A stretch of DNA of 64,000 bases from Methanobrevibacter sp. (GTDB lineage Archaea; Methanobacteriota; Methanobacteria; Methanobacteriales; Methanobacteriaceae), in contig NZ_JBJEIO010000009.1 in assembly GCF_051877095.1 (NCBI RefSeq), positions 47,874-111,873 on the forward strand, in the 5' to 3' direction. How positions within the stretch are numbered: the stretch's first letter is position 1; each line of letters opens with the position of its first letter. Position numbers and translations under genes: made by a program. The notes under the pieces are model-generated. The model was not told where the DNA came from and did no database searches. It saw nothing but the letters and a program-made list of their open reading frames with translations. Below are positions 194-17,492 of the stretch, piece by piece.

Positions 194-1365
194 TCATTGG
201 AGATGGAATATCTCCTTTAAATTCATTAACATTTCGTTTTTAGTCTTTGAGCCAGTTACTTGCATGATAAAATCGTATTTGTTAAGATTTACGCCGCAAG
301 CGCTGCAATAAAAACGATTTTTAAATACAACTGCGCTAGGATGGTTATCATCATGAAATGGGCAGCAGTAAGTATTTCTATTTTCATATTTAGCTACTGG
401 TTCGCCTAAGGTTAAAATAGCTAAATCTCTTAAGTCAACATTTTCAAATAAATCATCACTATGGTTAGTTTTACGTATTGCTATGCGTTTTTTATTTTCT
501 AGCTTTGTCTCCTTATTTAAATCATCATTTAATGATACTAATAAATCATTGAAAGAGTTAGGGGCATAATAATCATCAATATTGAATTCAATAGGTTTGT
601 TTTCATTTTTGATTATTTTATCGAGAGTATCCTCATAACTTAGGTCATTTGGTATTGGTTGACAATATAGTTTTGTTTTTGAGTTAATGCTGTAAGGGAC
701 TCGTTGAAGTCGCCTATGTGCATCACGATTTACAGCAATGTCAAGAGTATCTAAACCTAATGTTTTTTGAAAAACACTAGCTAAATGTTGGCTAATTTTA
801 CCAATTGATTTAGCTGCAACTCCCTAAAGAAAACATTAACATGAAAACCTTTGCTTCCGCTAGCAATAAGATATGCATTAATCTCTTTATTTCGTAAGTA
901 ATTGCATAGTTCGATAGCTTCTCTAAAAGGTTTTTCAAGCAGATCTTCATCAAAAATTAAAGATCTATATTCACTTTGCAGTGTCTTGATTTTTTCGCTT
1001 CTAGTTTTACCAACTAAATTTGATTGTACCTCAATAATTTCTTTTTTAATTGCTGAAGCTCTTTTATCTGTTACATCAAAGTCAAAGAATAATCTATCGG
1101 AGTACCTTTTACTGTTATCGTTCTTTTCGTATTCTGGTAAAGTTTTATAATAGCTAATCTCTGCTGCAAGAAGACCATGTACTCCAGAACGATATTTCAA
1201 ATTTAAAAAGTTGAAAAATGTCTCTGATGGGTCAACATTATCTTTATAATGTTTGCAATTTAAAAAAAGAGGTTGTGATATCTCATGAAGGTATCTAACA
1301 TCCCTATAATAATTACCATTGTAATAATCTCGATGGTAATCTCTTAAGGTATACATTTTAACCAT
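194..1365 (-). pseudogene. Archaeo-eukaryotic primase-polymerase (AEP) with C-terminal CHC2-type zinc finger, frameshifted at ~823-825
   Basis: Frame 1 (1365-826): motif I LFFDFD and motif II SGSKGFH. Shifted frame (823-194, 209 aa, no start codon): motif III region DIAVNRDAHRRLQRVPYSINSKT and CPFHDDNHPS...FYCSACG. One extra base in the AGGG run would join them into ~390 aa. Confidence 0.85.
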
Positions 1366-3742
1366 CTCCTAATAGCTTTTTAAAATCATCACTAGCTCTG
1401 TAGTAAGTTTCATCATCTACTTTGTTTTCTAACACTAATTGTGAATTTAATAAATCATTTATACATTTGCCTACAGCAATAGATAGAAAATCAATAGATG
1501 TATCATCAGTGTTGTAATTTTCATGTATTTCATCTGTCAGTTGCTTTGCGGTTAAATTTCCTTTAATCAAGCATAAACCAATGTTGCGCGCAAGTTCAGG
1601 ATTTTTCATCGTGCCTGTATTGGTTGTTATATCTAAGTTAGCACCCTTCTTTGAGCTTTGTTTTTCAAAAACAGTATTTTTAGAAGCTTTTGTGGGGGTG
1701 TGAAATTCACTCGAAGTTGGGTTAATATTCAATATTTTTGAATTTTTCAATTCTGAACCAATATCTTTTACATAAGATAAATCATTATATTTTGCTTTAT
1801 CCAGGTTAACGGAATATTTGTCATAATTGAAATTGCTAACTGCAACATTTATAAAATTATAATAAGAATTGTAGTCATTAATGTCGAGTTCATTTGAATA
1901 ATTTTCACAATAAAAATTAAGGTATGCCCACCCCTCTTCATTTAAAGTAATATTACACAACATAAATAAAGAGTATAAAACGGTTTGTTTAAAATTTAAG
2001 CTATTAATTTGGTTGCTATTTTTAATTTCGCAACCTACACAACTCCTTTTTTTATCACCCTCTTTTATTTTGTAGTATATCCAAGGTGATGATGATGAGC
2101 TATCTTTATCAAATAGTATCTTCCCTATCAAACCCATGTCTTCTAATGACTTAGCTGTACCCTGAGGATAATCTAAATAATTTCGTAGAGTACTTGATGC
2201 AATGCCTGTAGCTTTAGAAATGTTGCTTCTAGTGTATTCTTTTTCAAGGATTTCATTTTTCTCTTCTTTTGATTCCGCATCATTATACTTAGTTAATGCT
2301 TTTTTATGCTGGTCATGAGCTTCTTCATGGGTCTTTTCGGGTAAATATTCGAGTATTCTAATATGTTTATCGTTTAGTTTAAACTCTTGTATTTTTGCAG
2401 TTTTTTTCCATAATTCATTTACAAAGCTATAATCTTCATAAGAACCAATATAAATGTCTTTTTCACCGATTTTAACACTTTTTCTATTTAATGCATGAAA
2501 AAAAGTTTTAGATTTCACTAATGTAATAAATCCTTTTATATTTCTGTTGTTTAGTTCACTAGGGTCAAACAATAGTGTAAATGGGTTAAAAACATTAATG
2601 TCCATTTCAACTAGGTATTGGATAGCTGATTGGATTATTAACCTGCTTCTTTTGATAATTTCATTATTCTCAGAGTCTATGATGGTGTTAGTTTTGACTT
2701 TTCCTTTGATATTTTTCTTACTATCTTTTCCTGTGACAATGATGTTTAACTTATACAATCGGTTTAGAAGTTCTTCATCAATATTGTTCTTGGCATAAGT
2801 TAGTATAATTAGAAATTTGCCTTCTAAAGTAAAAGTTCGGGCTTTACCATCAATTACTGTCCTTAACTCTTTCACTGGTTTTTTATTATCTGCTAATTCT
2901 TTTATAACTTCAATCATTGATTCACTAAGGACAACATCGTCAAAAATCAAAATGTTGTATTTCCCATATGAATCGCGGTCATAATACACGTTTCTAGGAG
3001 AGATGTTCCGTACAATATTTATGTAGCATGGAGGGTAATTTTCTGATGTTTCGATAACTATATCAGTTTTTCCCACACCTGTGTCCGCATTAACTTCAGT
3101 ATGAACCGGCTGATCAATAAAGACAGATGAAAGTATTAATGCGAGTTGATTTGTAGCGTCCTTATTGCCTTCGTGAGTCCAAGAGATGTTGTCTATTGTA
3201 TTATCAAATAGTTTATCCTCTTCTAACATCTTAATAGCTTCTTCTTGAATTACTTTGTCATAATCTGTAAAGCTTATGGTATCTGGGCTTTGCTCTTCCA
3301 CTTCTTCGGCTTCTACTTTTTTTGGAAATTCAAAGTCGACTTCCTTTAAAACACTTAAACAATTGGCCTGGATAATAGATCTCTTAAAATTACTAACAAA
3401 TGAAATCAGTTCATCTTCATTAAATTCAAGGCCAGCGCTCTCGCTTGCTTTGAGTAGATTAGTAATTAGTTTCTTATCTTCTTCGTTAATTAATTTATCA
3501 CTTCTATAAATTGTTAAAGTCTGAAAACTATTGCCATTATATTTGGTCCATATATAGATAAGTTCTAACTTTTTACTTTCGTTTCTACTGAGTTTTAAAT
3601 AATTGTCTTGATTAAAAGGGATATACACTCCACTTTCATCAAATTTATAATTGATTAACTCGTCTGTTACTTTATAAATAGATTGATCATCTGCTATTTC
3701 TTTTTTAATAGCAACTTTAAGATCATCAAATTCTTCACGCAT
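1358..3742 (-). CDS. AAA+ (MCM-related/PS-II-like) ATPase, putative replicative helicase/initiator with winged-helix domains
   Basis: Walker A ADTGVGKT, Walker B ILIFDD, sensor/arginine-finger segment ILTYAKNNIDEELLNR; HTH-like SNISKATGIASSTLRNYL and a C-terminal wHTH; stop overlaps the primase start. Confidence 0.7.
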   Translation of the reverse strand: MREEFDDLKVAIKKEIADDQSIYKVTDELINYKFDESGVYIPFNQDNYLKLSRNESKKLELIYIWTKYNGNSFQTLTIYRSDKLINEEDKKLITNLLKASESAGLEFNEDELISFVSNFKRSIIQANCLSVLKEVDFEFPKKVEAEEVEEQSPDTISFTDYDKVIQEEAIKMLEEDKLFDNTIDNISWTHEGNKDATNQLALILSSVFIDQPVHTEVNADTGVGKTDIVIETSENYPPCYINIVRNISPRNVYYDRDSYGKYNILIFDDVVLSESMIEVIKELADNKKPVKELRTVIDGKARTFTLEGKFLIILTYAKNNIDEELLNRLYKLNIIVTGKDSKKNIKGKVKTNTIIDSENNEIIKRSRLIIQSAIQYLVEMDINVFNPFTLLFDPSELNNRNIKGFITLVKSKTFFHALNRKSVKIGEKDIYIGSYEDYSFVNELWKKTAKIQEFKLNDKHIRILEYLPEKTHEEAHDQHKKALTKYNDAESKEEKNEILEKEYTRSNISKATGIASSTLRNYLDYPQGTAKSLEDMGLIGKILFDKDSSSSSPWIYYKIKEGDKKRSCVGCEIKNSNQINSLNFKQTVLYSLFMLCNITLNEEGWAYLNFYCENYSNELDINDYNSYYNFINVAVSNFNYDKYSVNLDKAKYNDLSYVKDIGSELKNSKILNINPTSSEFHTPTKASKNTVFEKQSSKKGANLDITTNTGTMKNPELARNIGLCLIKGNLTAKQLTDEIHENYNTDDTSIDFLSIAVGKCINDLLNSQLVLENKVDDETYYRASDDFKKLLGDG

Positions 3743-3770
3743 TTTTTCCTCCTAAAAAAAATAATAAGCA

Positions 3771-3854
3771 TCCAAGGAGAAAAAGTATTTTAAATATTAG
3801 ACACATACATAGTTTTGCCGTTATGTGATGTGTTCATGTACTTTTCTACTTGAA
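3771..3854 (-). promoter_or_regulatory. Long imperfect hairpin in the leader of the helicase-primase genes
   Basis: Outer arms tccaaggagaaaaagta / tacttttctacttgaa and inner arms acacatacata / tatgtgatgtgt; ends ~30 nt upstream of the ATG at 3742. Confidence 0.45.
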
Positions 3855-3870
3855 TACATTACGTTTCTTT

Positions 3871-4041
3871 TTACATCAAATCTGATTCTCTTTCAGACTC
3901 GTAAAGAGCTTGTTCTATTAATTCGTCTTCAGATGGTTCATCTAGATCAAAATCTATAAAACCATACTTTTCACAATATCCGCAGTAATCGCATTTTTCA
4001 TACGGATACAACATACAGGGGTCACCTTTTTTATTCATCAT
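3871..4041 (-). CDS. Small acidic Cys-motif protein (47-56 aa), below the ORF-track cut-off
   Basis: (MMNKKGDPC)MLYPYEKCDYCGYCEKYGFIDFDLDEPSEDELIEQALYESERESDLM; GGTGA RBS before the ATG at 4014; CxxCxxC motif; fills the gap in the leftward operon. Confidence 0.55.
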   Translation of the reverse strand: MMNKKGDPCMLYPYEKCDYCGYCEKYGFIDFDLDEPSEDELIEQALYESERESDLM

Positions 4042-4453
4042 AAAAATCACCTCTAATAAAGAAATTTTCTTCTATTTCATCATAACTTGCGTCAAAAAAA
4101 CGCATATGATTATCTTCTAATAATCTGATTAATATTGAATCAAGATTTGCCATGCTGTTGTTAAGATGATTTATATTCAAATTTAAGAGACCTTGTTCAG
4201 CTTCGCCAGATTTCATATTGTCAATTATTTCTTCCAGTTCCTTTGCTGTAAATTCATCTTTTATTCCAGTATCGTGGTAGTATAGGATAGTATCAATTAA
4301 ATGTGTTGCTCTTATACTAATGCTAGTTCCATAATAAACAGCATTGTCAATGACTTTTCTAAGGTATACTAATTCAGTTATCATTTCTTGTACAGTTTCT
4401 TTTTTCATGTAATCGTTTTCAAAATCATTCTTCATTATCATCACCATTATCAA
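4031..4453 (-). CDS. Hypothetical acidic protein (likely start 4435)
   Basis: 140-aa ORF; GGTGA RBS before the ATG at 4435; overlaps both neighbours. Confidence 0.7.
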   Translation of the reverse strand: MIMVMIMKNDFENDYMKKETVQEMITELVYLRKVIDNAVYYGTSISIRATHLIDTILYYHDTGIKDEFTAKELEEIIDNMKSGEAEQGLLNLNINHLNNSMANLDSILIRLLEDNHMRFFDASYDEIEENFFIRGDFYDE

Positions 4454-4730
4454 ATATTGGTTCGATTTTTTCAGTTAACCATTCACTTTTATTACAAATT
4501 TTACAGTTTTTTTCTTCTATTTCACTTAATTCAATAATTAAACAATTTAAGACGACATGAAATCCTAGCAGGCAGTTGATAGCTTTTAAACCATCATCCC
4601 TTTCCATATCTATTGTTCTTGAATCAAATTGAGGCAATGAATCTAAATACTCGTTAAATGATATTAACAAGATATATAAATGATTCATCTCACCTTGTAG
4701 TTCATCTGTTTTTTCAACTAAATTTCTCAT
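4425..4730 (-). CDS. Hypothetical protein
   Basis: 101-aa ORF, first gene of the leftward operon; frame stays open ~14 codons upstream to a GAGGA motif followed by ATA. Confidence 0.65.
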   Translation of the reverse strand: MRNLVEKTDELQGEMNHLYILLISFNEYLDSLPQFDSRTIDMERDDGLKAINCLLGFHVVLNCLIIELSEIEEKNCKICNKSEWLTEKIEPIFDNGDDNEE

Positions 4731-4955
4731 ACTTTCCAGTTCTTCGTTTTTGATATTTTCGCTGTATATTATATCGTCCTCTTATATAGTGTAAATTTAA
4801 ATAATTTTTTTACAGAAGGCATTGATTTAAAAAACCTTCTTTCCACTACTTATATAGTCAACACATGATTATTTTTACTAATAATCTTCTATACTTGTGT
4901 GATGATTATTAGTTTATCGTTTAGCTTATTTATATGGCTTAGTTTTTCATAAAAT

Positions 4956-5024
4956 TGCGAATTATTCGGCGTAAGTGCGAATGCAGTATATTTAAATAAG
5001 TCATTTTTTTCGCATTTTTGCGAA
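4956..5024. promoter_or_regulatory. Putative operator: four TGCGAA hexamers around a TATA-like box in the divergent promoter region
   Basis: TGCGAA at 4956 and 4976 (20-bp spacing), palindrome TTCGCA-TTTT-TGCGAA at 5009-5024, TATATTTAAATA between them. Confidence 0.55.
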
Positions 5025-5090
5025 TTTTTTTGATACTTTAATAATTAATCTGGAATAGTATATTTACAGGAATTATCAAAATATAGTATT

Positions 5091-6284
5091 ATGAGACAGA
5101 TATTATCTAATGAAATTATCTATGAAGTGATTAAGTCATCAAACGTGTTACATAAGTCCATGATTAGTTTTATGTTTACTACTGGATTGAAACATGATAA
5201 ACTTAGAACTTTTAAAATTAAAGATTTATTACGTGCATGTAGTGCTTTTATGGATAATGGAGAATCTATTGATGATTTATTAAAGAAAAATTCATTAGAG
5301 ATTATTCCCTGTTGGAGAATATCTGATAGTTCTAATGTAGGAATTTGTTTTAACACTCCTGAAACCACCCAATATTTATTTGATTATTTAAAAGACAGAC
5401 AAAGATATGCTAATTTTAATGAAGAAAGTTATTTATTCAAAAATTATAATAAGGGTAATCCTGCTCTTAATGATGAAGAGCAATTAGAAAAAGATTTTAT
5501 TACAAAAGAATTAAGCCGTAAGAAAAAAGATTTAAACAAATTACATAATGGTGATGAAATACAGTTCAATCCAGGAAATATTACCTACACATTTATTAAA
5601 ATATGTAATGATCATTTAAAATTGGATGATTCAGATAAAAAAGAACTAATTGCTTTATTTCAAGCTAACACAACAAAAGAAAATAAATTTTATGATGACC
5701 CGAATATCAAAGAGTATTACACGGAATTAGTACAATATCTAACAATAGACCCTATATATGAATCTTATCATTATCCAGATGGTGACGATGGTGGCAGTGT
5801 TGAAGATGATGAAGAGAACAATGTTTATTCTGATTGGGATATTAAGCAAAAAATTGGTTCATATTACATGAACAATATTAAAACAGTGCATAAACTTGAT
5901 TATAATGAATATGATAGGTTATGTGGTATTGTATATGATTTAGCTATATATGATAGAGATTCTAAACACCACACGTTTATACTTAATGATGAATCATTGG
6001 ATAATTATTTTAAAAAAGCTAAAGTCCAAGTTCTAATTGAAGACTATACAGAAGAAATACATGTTCTAGTTAACGAAGGCAATATCGATGTTAAAATTAA
6101 TGAGATTATTCATTTAATGGATAAGATAGGTGTTCTTTATCTAATTCAAGATCATAATCATTTGATAAAGGTAATAAAAGAATACTTGACTTTCCCAATA
6201 CATGATTATGGGGAATTTGTAATCACTTCATCAGCCATAAATGATATCATAAATCTTTGTATTGATGGTTTTTTCATGAATTGA
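5091..6284 (+). CDS. Degenerate tyrosine-recombinase catalytic-domain homolog fused to an acidic C-terminal domain of unknown function
   Basis: SMISFMFTTGLKHDKLRTFKIKDLL resembles box I (R replaced by K); CFNTPETTQYLFDYLKDR and KEYYTELVQYLTI resemble methanogen integrases; the HxxR box is replaced by FNPGNITY; no N-terminal core-binding domain. Confidence 0.65.
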   Translation: MRQILSNEIIYEVIKSSNVLHKSMISFMFTTGLKHDKLRTFKIKDLLRACSAFMDNGESIDDLLKKNSLEIIPCWRISDSSNVGICFNTPETTQYLFDYLKDRQRYANFNEESYLFKNYNKGNPALNDEEQLEKDFITKELSRKKKDLNKLHNGDEIQFNPGNITYTFIKICNDHLKLDDSDKKELIALFQANTTKENKFYDDPNIKEYYTELVQYLTIDPIYESYHYPDGDDGGSVEDDEENNVYSDWDIKQKIGSYYMNNIKTVHKLDYNEYDRLCGIVYDLAIYDRDSKHHTFILNDESLDNYFKKAKVQVLIEDYTEEIHVLVNEGNIDVKINEIIHLMDKIGVLYLIQDHNHLIKVIKEYLTFPIHDYGEFVITSSAINDIINLCIDGFFMN

Positions 6285-6640
6285 TTTATGCTCTATTACA
6301 TGTTTAAAATAGCTATGTAAGACACGGAATGGATTTACTATGGTATGTATGTAAGACAGTAATTAGACTTGATTTCATTGAATATAGCTGATCATAAGGC
6401 TCTTGAATCGAATTTTCCGAGTGCTTATTTTTGTGATTTTGCTCCGCTTTTCTGCTGTTGTGTCAGCTGATTTTCCAGTTGCTCTGTTCTAATGGCTGTC
6501 GATTTCGTACTTTAGTACTTACTTATACAATTTCTTAATGGTGTTGTTGGTGTAGGTTCAGCAGTTTTTGTAGTGGTTGCTGATGTAGGTTCTGTTATTA
6601 TGGGCAGTTATATCATGTAACATATTAAAAATGCTCTTAC

Positions 6641-6867
6641 TTTTACACTTGAAATGATACCTCGAAAAAAAATTTAACTGTTTAAAATTCTTTGATTCAT
6701 CTATTCTATTTAGATAGCTACTTTTTTTCTAAATACTCTAATTTTAAATGTACTTCAAGTGTAAATAATAACTCTTCGTAAAATAGCTTGATTAGGTAAT
6801 TAGTAAATTTATGAACGAATTAAGTTAATCAGGGTAAGTATATTTGTTTAATTTTTACACTTGAAAT
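6641..6867. repeat. Three copies of TTTACACTTGAA (two direct 15-mers, one inverted 12-mer)
   Basis: ttttacacttgaaat at 6641-6655 and 6853-6867; ttcaagtgtaaa (reverse complement) at 6754-6765. Confidence 0.85.
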
Positions 6868-7169
6868 AACACTTCTCCGTTGAGTTTGAGGGCTTAATTC
6901 TAAATTTTTGGTGGGTCATCTATATGTTGTGGGAGAGATACTTAATTTTTACAATACTCTATAAAATAAAGAAAGAAAGAGGTAATCATTTGCATGGTTA
7001 AGCAACTAAGTATCATGAATACTTGAATGTATATTGAATATGGTGGGGGTAAAATCAACTATGAATTTTGGTTGGTTGCTCCGATTGGAAAATAAAGCTC
7101 AAATTCGGCTCTGATTCATATTGATAAAAACCCCAAAATCGAGCTTATTTTTTGGACCAAAAAATTGTG

Positions 7170-7199
7170 TTTTTGCAAGTGTATAAACACTTACAAAAA
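7170..7199. repeat. Near-perfect palindrome (13-bp arms, 1 mismatch; also parses as 11-8-11)
   Basis: tttttgcaagtgt-ataa-acacttacaaaaa; the arms resemble the ACACTTGAA repeat upstream. Confidence 0.85.
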
Positions 7200-7204
7200 T
7201 TAAT

Positions 7205-7356
7205 TTAGAAACATTTTATTTTGTATGCATAGCTAAGTGTTGGTAGAGTAAGAACTCTTTTAATGTTGTTTCATACTTTCTGATTAATATTGTTTGTTTT
7301 CCTTGTCCTAAAGCTTCAATTTTTCCATTTCATTCGTTTATACGTTTTATTTTCAT
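7205..7356 (-). pseudogene. DUF1802-like (ASCH/PUA-like) gene remnant, N-terminus only
   Basis: MKIKRINE*NGKIEALGQGKQTILIRKYETTLKEFLLY then frameshift to (P)TLSYA; resembles the DUF1802 N-terminal signature xEWxxxxEALxxGxQxILxRK...FLLYPT; TGA at 7330-7332 at the Trp position. Confidence 0.7.
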
Positions 7357-7365
7357 TATGTTTGT

Positions 7366-17180: not shown

Positions 17181-17342
17181 CCTTAATTATAATGTTGTTT
17201 TTCATAAGAAATATATTTTCATGTTGTATTAATATTGTTTTAAGCTTATAAAATTACAAACAAAAAGCAATAATCACTTGGATTCATATGTAAAGACTTA
17301 AATAATTAATTAATCAATTAATTACATAAGTAGGTGTTTGTT

Positions 17343-17492
17343 ATGGCAATTTTAACTATTGATGTCTTGAAGAACCTAATAGAGAACATACCTGATGATT
17401 ATACTGTTGAATATAATAAAGAAGTAACTATTGCTCCAATCGATGACACAGTAGAGATTGATATTAGTGGTAAAAGACTTATATTCAAATAA
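17343..17492 (+). CDS. Small hypothetical protein (49 aa)
   Basis: AGGTG RBS; MAILTIDVLKNLIENIPDDYTVEYNKEVTIAPIDDTVEIDISGKRLIFK. Confidence 0.6.
   Translation: MAILTIDVLKNLIENIPDDYTVEYNKEVTIAPIDDTVEIDISGKRLIFK

Follow-up and report, generated by a model that had tools for sequence, protein, structure and literature searches.

What might a protein do that has the fold of a tyrosine recombinase and has kept none of the non-tyrosine catalytic residues? This question is raised by P0001, the product of a gene in a 64,000-nucleotide stretch of DNA from Methanobrevibacter sp. (hereafter the window; C9:47874-111873 of a 1.53 Mb genome in 14 contigs, ~29% GC). The gene lies in the first ~17.5 kb of the window, which is mobile-element and defence DNA. 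An earlier reading of the DNA letters (the original prediction) described P0001 as a dead integrase domain fused to a novel acidic domain, and proposed a DNA-binding regulator, directionality factor or defence component, not the integrase of its element. Alignments and structural models now place P0001 in a conserved, unannotated family that is found on mobile elements of Methanobacteriaceae and appears to be derived from tyrosine recombinases. We refer to its members as short forms and to their relatives of ~560-640 amino acids (aa) as long forms. New here are this family and its clade-specific upstream palindrome; a dead tyrosine recombinase in a non-catalytic role is a known theme.

Fold and active site of P0001

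As a single sequence, P0001 had no match in Pfam (E up to 0.1), NCBIfam, PHROG or PDB (phmmer), and scans for sequence patterns in IMG/VR viral contigs and in the species genomes of GTDB gave no confirmed relatives. We identified 26 close relatives of 30-99% identity, in which the full length is conserved. A profile built from 13 relatives found 332 proteins, many of which were 360-636 aa long. Profile positions ~3-240 aligned to residues ~120-380 of these longer proteins, where PF00589 is located, with SAM-like N-terminal domains before it. Thus, the homology of P0001 to tyrosine recombinases is visible only through the family profile.

An AlphaFold model was built on a 90-row alignment (43 long and 47 short rows) and had a predicted local distance difference test score (pLDDT) of 91.2, with residues 229-241 as the sole disordered stretch. 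It replaced an earlier model based on 13 close relatives, in which the N-terminal half had a pLDDT of 65 and Foldseek matches were not significant. Residues 1-221 of the new model matched the catalytic domain of archaeal XerA (4a8e_A) with Z 16.8 and a root-mean-square deviation of 2.5 Å over 172 residues (VIA-align). Approximately 20 further tyrosine recombinases and type IB topoisomerases matched at Z 8-15, the best after XerA being Cre, XerH, Tn1549 Int, integron integrase, SSV1 Int and lambda Int (Z 10-13). In Foldseek searches against PDB and BFVD and in an ESM Atlas shape search, the top matches were recombinases or integrases only. The fold suspected in the original prediction was therefore recovered.

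Inspection of the catalytic columns revealed extensive loss. The box I Arg is replaced by Lys34 (codon 5190-5192; this column is variable across the family) and HxxR by G162..T165, both as originally described. In addition, the β-hairpin Lys is deleted, with a Ser in a shortened hairpin, and the His/Trp III position is N193. Y201, the equivalent of the catalytic Tyr, is kept (codon 5691-5693), and none of the five non-tyrosine residues (0/5) is. Among the long rows, 41 of 43 keep four or five of these residues and all 43 have the Tyr, whereas none of the five is present in 30 of the 47 short rows and a single one in 15; the Tyr is found in 36 short rows. One short row has all five and looks like a long form truncated at its N-terminus. 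Conserved basic residues that could complete the active site in an alternative way were not found in the catalytic columns of the short rows. P0001 is predicted to be unable to cut and rejoin DNA.

The N-terminal core-binding domain is also missing, in agreement with the original prediction. Met1 of P0001 aligns to residue ~120-135 of full-length relatives; the long rows have an N-terminal extension of 114-143 aa (except one 285-aa row with 47 residues), which is absent from the short rows. Only 14 further open codons precede the start of the intact open reading frame (ORF), and tblastn detected no core-binding-like coding sequence upstream of the ATG.

Downstream of the catalytic domain and an acidic linker, P0001 has a helical domain of 153 residues. 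A profile of short-form C-termini matched the C-termini of ~600-aa long-form integrases (hhalign probability 94.6%, E 6.7e-8, 140 columns), which are likewise acidic. The domain is preceded by a coiled-coil-like spacer in long forms and by the acidic linker in short forms. On this evidence the C-terminal domain appears to be ancestral, inherited from ~600-aa long-form integrases. Thus, the linker and extra C-terminal residues noted earlier are present, but the description as a fused novel domain does not hold: the domain is unannotated and common to intact long integrases. In this way the short-form family draws attention to a conserved, unannotated C-terminal domain of archaeal integrases. 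Structural comparison of the domain gave weak matches only, at Z 5-6 (sigma-factor region 2-like, Sld7 and the N-terminal part of Stl), on which we place no interpretation, and an ESM Atlas feature search with it gave no usable match.

The short-form family and its upstream palindrome

Evolutionary rates indicate that the gene is maintained. By the Nei-Gojobori method, the ratio of nonsynonymous to synonymous rates (dN/dS) was 0.29 (bootstrap 0.21-0.40; dS 0.70) between P0001 and a 65%-identical paralog on contig C4 of the same genome, with values below 1 in 1000 of 1000 bootstraps. It was 0.50 (bootstrap 0.34-0.78) against an 82%-identical copy at locus L005 and was alike in the catalytic and C-terminal domains. 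These values suggest that the gene is kept by purifying selection, yet is fast-evolving. The original prediction had set the intact ORF apart from neighbouring remnants, and this distinction was upheld: the 397-aa ORF is whole, whereas the adjacent primase gene is read in two frames, residues 1-198 of the L005 ortholog corresponding to 1356-763 and residues 171-386 to 847-200, which implies a frameshift near 763-847. Neither neutral evolution nor a pseudogene fits a family that is monophyletic and diverse, with intact ORFs and purifying selection.

In a quick IQ-TREE phylogeny with midpoint rooting, the short forms made up one clade (Shimodaira-Hasegawa-like approximate likelihood-ratio test, SH-aLRT, 100), apart from the long forms. 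Full short forms are rare: among 314 species-representative Methanobacteriaceae genomes, they were found in this genome (two copies) and in two others, and one split and one truncated copy were found in addition. Of these broken forms, at L033 (G154:C8) and L034 (G174:C8), one is split into ORFs of 157 aa and 277 aa and the other is cut to 239 aa (N-terminal domain only). The second copy in this genome belongs to a second related element (C4:33921-35099 and C4:42148-43926, both on the minus strand; loci L002 and L003). This C4 element carries the paralog together with a primase-polymerase/DUF5906 fusion and a 593-aa long-form integrase. The short-form gene travels with mobile DNA.

A perfect palindrome, TTCGCA-TTTT-TGCGAA, and two direct TGCGAA half-sites precede the P0001 gene (Table 1). 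Four of the 12 TGCGAA hexamers in the window fall in a single 69-bp stretch upstream of P0001. Counted over the whole window, the hexamer shows no enrichment (12 copies, with 11.8 expected); what is informative is solely that it clusters and that it is conserved across elements. The half-site layout at -135/-115/-81/-72 from the ATG is retained in the C4 element, whose DNA is 75% identical. Exact TTCGCA-N4-TGCGAA was detected in four independent lineages: the window and L005, C4 and L007, L035 (upstream of the gene for P0030, 32% identical) and L039 (upstream of the gene for P0031). A palindrome with one mismatch precedes the genes for P0022 (L012), P0033 (L014) and P0035 (L040). In the seven sampled lineages it is located 39-82 bp upstream of the ATG. 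We fetched two of these loci, L039 and L040, in order to test the palindrome prediction; both bore it out, the former with an exact copy and the latter with one mismatch. The fetched DNA, 476,703 bp in total, contains nine exact copies of the palindrome, all of which lie upstream of a short-form gene.

All palindrome-bearing proteins fall within one 17-row clade (SH-aLRT 98), and TTCGCA-N4-TGCGAA was absent from the sampled loci of other short-form clades. In some of those clades the position is occupied by another palindrome, AATACT-N7-AGTATT or AAACAC-N6-GTGTTT; the former was seen in a P0027-like subclade (L010, L015, L016), ~45-105 bp upstream of the short-form ATG.

Gene order is conserved as well. 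The short form is divergent to small ORFs followed by a replication protein, of either the MTBMA_p00010 type or the primase-polymerase/DUF5906 type, in all lineages that were sampled from the P0001 clade and in several lineages farther away (window, C4/L007, L005, L012, L014, L035, L037, L038, L039). By blastn, DNA similarity between the window and the C4 element is limited to 4920-6358 (75% identity), and window positions 4705-6324 match L005 at 89%; similarity stops 40-75 bp past the P0001 stop codon. The half-site cluster, promoter and gene are thus kept as one block across elements with different replication genes and integrases. The first gene of the divergent operon varies among palindrome-bearing elements, being either ribbon-helix-helix (RHH)-like (56-67 aa) or ~150 aa long, and so the short form is the sole gene common to all of them. 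The RHH-like proteins (L007:8020-8190, L014:1315-1518, L035:4961-5134, L038:5487-5675) are a possible Cro- or CopG-like counterpart.

Table 1. Features of the P0001 locus and its surroundings (window positions unless a contig is named)
Feature	Position	Strand	Basis
P0001, short-form catalytically dead tyrosine-recombinase-like gene, 397 aa	5091-6284	+	Intact ORF, relatives, dN/dS
Degenerate catalytic (CAT) domain, aa 1-228	5091-5774	+	XerA structural match, alignment columns, profile reaching PF00589 proteins
Acidic disordered linker, aa 229-244, net charge -8	5775-5822	+	pLDDT <50 at 229-241; charge
Acidic all-helical C-terminal domain, aa 245-397, net charge -11	5823-6281	+	hhalign to long-form C-termini, pLDDT 83-97
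Perfect palindrome TTCGCA-TTTT-TGCGAA, candidate operator	5009-5024		67-82 bp upstream of P0001 ATG
Two direct TGCGAA half-sites	4956-4961, 4976-4981	+	20 bp apart; conserved in C4 element
TATA-like A/T box, putative promoter element	4987-4998	+	Read from sequence, just upstream of palindrome
Conserved module: half-site cluster, promoter, gene	4920-6324	+	blastn
Divergent replication block: small ORFs, 794-aa replication protein, frameshifted primase	194-4730	-	
Small ORFs of replication block	4425-4730, 4031-4453, 3871-4050	-	
Replication protein, 794 aa	1358-3742	-	
Frameshifted primase	200-1356	-	
557-aa long-form integrase-family gene	C9:43610-45283 = L001:15611-17284, 2.6-4.3 kb left of window	+	hhalign to family

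Besides P0001, the first ~17.5 kb of the window includes the frameshifted primase, the 794-aa replication protein, small ORFs, a type I restriction-modification (R-M) system and a Schlafen-like helicase. The window also contains A-type ATP synthase genes, and the structural clusters nearest to the P0001 model in the ESM Atlas shape search were from Methanobacteriota. Several smaller observations were made in this region. The window ortholog of the 151-aa first gene in the divergent operon (4031-4730, -) is ~240 bp longer than in L005, with the extra DNA at 4474-4704, and its original start seems to be gone; this change may have produced the 101-aa ORF at 4425-4730 as an artefact. Between the first small ORF and the replication gene lies a gene for a conserved Cys-rich protein of 56-59 aa (C-x8-C-x2-C-x2-C; window 3871-4050 (-), L005:8932-9102, L012:9240-9410). 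Between the conserved module and hsdR, positions 6325-7365 form ~1 kb without long ORFs or similarity to related elements. The ACACTTGAA repeats of the original prediction (6641-6867, 7170-7199) fall in this stretch, outside the conserved module, which ends near 6324-6365. A 159-bp sequence at 17333-17491 is 92% identical to C4 (L002:6454-6612), near the far ends of both elements; it holds a 49-aa ORF from position 17343. A search for att-type direct repeats between both ends of the C9 island gave only 13-bp matches at chance level.

The elements also carry complete integrases. The 557-aa protein encoded to the left of the window has a core-binding-like N-terminus, a Lys-hairpin, HxLR and Tyr, and matched the family profile with hhalign probability 99.6% (E 6.7e-24), although it had no Pfam or NCBIfam match. 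Its box I reads SGTAKME, with Lys, compared with SGCARTE, with Arg, in related integrases, so its recombinase activity is uncertain. Given this gene with core-binding and catalytic domains, P0001 itself is not the integrase of the element, in agreement with the original prediction. In other elements, the C4 paralog is paired with the 593-aa long form and the L005 copy with a 616-aa long form. The three long-form integrases are mutually ~25% identical, whereas their short forms are 65-82% identical. This implies that the two gene types were shuffled independently, which argues against a specific partnership between a short form and an integrase and weakens the earlier proposal of a directionality factor.

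Possible functions of P0001

We tentatively favour, with confidence that stops just short of even, the possibility that P0001 is an autoregulated, sequence-specific DNA-binding regulator similar to the phage proteins MrpR and SroF. P0001 would bind the TTCGCA-N4-TGCGAA palindrome and the additional TGCGAA half-sites directly upstream of its own gene. Archaeal repressors usually act just after the TATA box, and the candidate sites lie between the TATA-like box and the start codon; binding there could shut off the promoter of P0001 and act as a switch beside the divergent operon of small ORFs and replication genes. We infer that P0001 itself binds the palindrome, that the bound form is a dimer or oligomer, and that binding leads to repression. 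P0001 would then be an archaeal counterpart, consisting of the catalytic domain only, of the integrase-fold phage repressors. The regulator suggested in the original prediction gains circumstantial support from the position and clade specificity of the palindrome and from the divergent orientation to the replication operon, and it is the function itself that we infer.

Several observations weigh against such a regulator, chief among them the electrostatics. P0001 is very acidic (net charge -24, isoelectric point 4.9; among the 40 large ORFs in the window, a single one is more acidic), and the catalytic domains of short forms have a median net charge of -1, compared with +4 in active relatives. 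P0001 has neither a core-binding domain to close a clamp on DNA nor a recognisable helix-turn-helix. No further copies of the palindrome occur elsewhere in the elements, and hence no regulon is visible. Presence of the palindrome tracks phylogeny, and relatives share features anyway; it could instead serve a host factor or the divergent small proteins, which are RHH-like in several elements. Finally, the P0027-like distant subclade is next to defence genes and not to a replication operon: a TIR gene (L010), Avs4 (L015, PADLOC E 9e-173) and an FRG-domain gene (L016). At L015:5136-9140, in another Methanobacteriaceae genome, the short form overlaps the start of the Avs4-type STAND NTPase gene, which is itself split into ORFs of 711 aa and at least 615 aa.

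Among the alternatives, the short form could be a partner of the integrase, joining or blocking long-form assemblies through shared domains as a directionality factor, an architectural subunit or a dominant-negative inhibitor, for which truncated transposase inhibitors provide a comparison. We consider this unlikely. Both domains of P0001 are homologous to long-form integrase domains, and each of the three elements with sufficient context (C9, C4 and L005) also has a long-form integrase. However, co-evolution was not seen: P0001 is 82% identical to P0003 and 65% identical to the C4 paralog, beside integrases as divergent as described above. Moreover, the short forms are an old, separate clade and not recent duplicates, the coiled coil that precedes the C-terminal domain of long forms is missing from them, and the conserved palindrome would be left unexplained.

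We give a still smaller chance to a DNA-binding protein associated with segregation or the replication origin, with the half-site cluster as a centromere-like or iteron site. The parallel would be yeast Ndc10 of CBF3, a eukaryotic kinetochore protein in which a dead tyrosine-recombinase fold is reused for DNA binding; it matches the P0001 model at Z 7.7-8.2. Clustered direct and inverted half-sites do adjoin the replication operon, but no gene for ParA or another partition ATPase was present nearby in the window or the related loci, replication proteins differ among elements that share the palindrome, and in every lineage the site is at promoter distance from the ATG of the short-form gene itself.

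It is similarly improbable that P0001 acts on proteins of the host or of rival elements and not on DNA, as an acidic decoy, DNA mimic or component of defence or counter-defence. The extreme acidity of the linker and C-terminal domain, the loss of basic residues from the catalytic domain and the proximity of defence genes (type I R-M and the Schlafen-like helicase in the window, TIR at L010, Avs4 directly downstream at L015) would be in line with this possibility. On the other hand, PADLOC models matched neither P0001 nor P0027 at E up to 0.01. The defence genes nearby change from one part of the family to another, unlike the divergent replication operon, which is constant within the P0001 clade. 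Again, the palindrome is not accounted for.

A related idea, to which we assign an equally low likelihood, is that the acidic C-terminal domain, common to unrelated long integrases and the short form, is a docking module for one partner (a host chromatin or replication factor, or the integrases), and that the dead, acidic short form, as a decoy or competitor, tunes the integration, excision or targeting carried out by whichever integrase is present in the element. If so, it would represent a trans-acting layer of control over archaeal tyrosine integrases that has no described counterpart.

That P0001 is a non-functional relic, either an integrase in decay or the Int(C) half left when integration splits an SSV-type integrase, is hardly credible: the missing core-binding domain, the lost catalytic residues, the frameshifted primase and the broken copies in two reference genomes are signs of decay, but the start Met and full length are conserved in dozens of members that are 20-80% identical, dN/dS was below 1 in every bootstrap against the paralog, the 5′ end of the gene points to the interior of the element and is preceded by a conserved upstream region of its own, not by an att junction, and a complete integrase coexists in the element. 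The Int(C) identity in particular was ruled out by orientation, the gene's own start codon, the dead active site and the whole integrase at C9:43610-45283.

Relation to known systems

Among the known systems closest to P0001 are the long-form Methanobacteriaceae integrases (P0044, P0055, P0060, and the C4 593-aa and C9 557-aa proteins). They share with it a homologous catalytic domain (profile E down to 1e-37) and an acidic C-terminal domain, and are found on the same elements. Unlike P0001, they have a core-binding domain of ~115-145 aa, the coiled-coil spacer and the full R-K-H-R-H-Y set. This comparison carries a warning for annotation, namely that integrase-like genes in such elements are not always integrases.

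Archaeal XerA (PDB 4A8E, 5HXY) is the best structural match to residues 1-221, with an identity of 11-17%. However, XerA actively resolves chromosome dimers; it has a core-binding domain, and its active site is intact. Ndc10 has no sequence relationship to P0001 and a different domain context. Int(C) fragments of SSV-type "suicidal" archaeal integrases resemble P0001 in that they carry the catalytic domain, lack the N-terminal part and reside in an integrated archaeal element. They are generated when the integrase is split at attP, lie directly at the border of the element and retain the catalytic residues (PMC8371274). In P0001, by contrast, the active site is dead, the start and the upstream region are its own and conserved, and the 5′ end of the gene points into the element, which also contains a whole integrase.

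To our knowledge, the documented cases of dead tyrosine recombinases acting as regulators are so far MrpR and SroF of SPbeta-like Bacillus phages and, beyond prokaryotes, Ndc10. MrpR (YopR) of phage SPbeta and SroF of phi3T are integrase-fold master repressors (PDB 8A0A, 9RD5), and the P0001 model matches them at Z 10.8 and 10.7, respectively; in a single-sequence phmmer search of PDB sequences with P0001, neither was found at E up to 10. All three proteins are encoded on mobile elements, have a tyrosine-recombinase fold and have had catalytic residues replaced. MrpR and SroF have no recombinase activity and bind their operators mainly through the catalytic domain (PMC10516654; 10.1101/2025.11.27.690993).

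There are also differences. MrpR and SroF are bacterial, keep the core-binding domain and clamp DNA as monomers on a long asymmetric box; P0001 is archaeal, combines the catalytic domain only with an acidic C-terminal domain, is acidic overall and has a short 6-4-6 palindrome as its candidate site. TTCGCA-N4-TGCGAA is a ready, testable candidate operator, and the family may offer a handle on the control of replication and maintenance in plasmid- and virus-like elements of gut and rumen methanogens. If P0001 is indeed a regulator, its family would bring the reuse of dead recombinases to Archaea, in a form stripped down to a catalytic domain and one uncharacterised domain.

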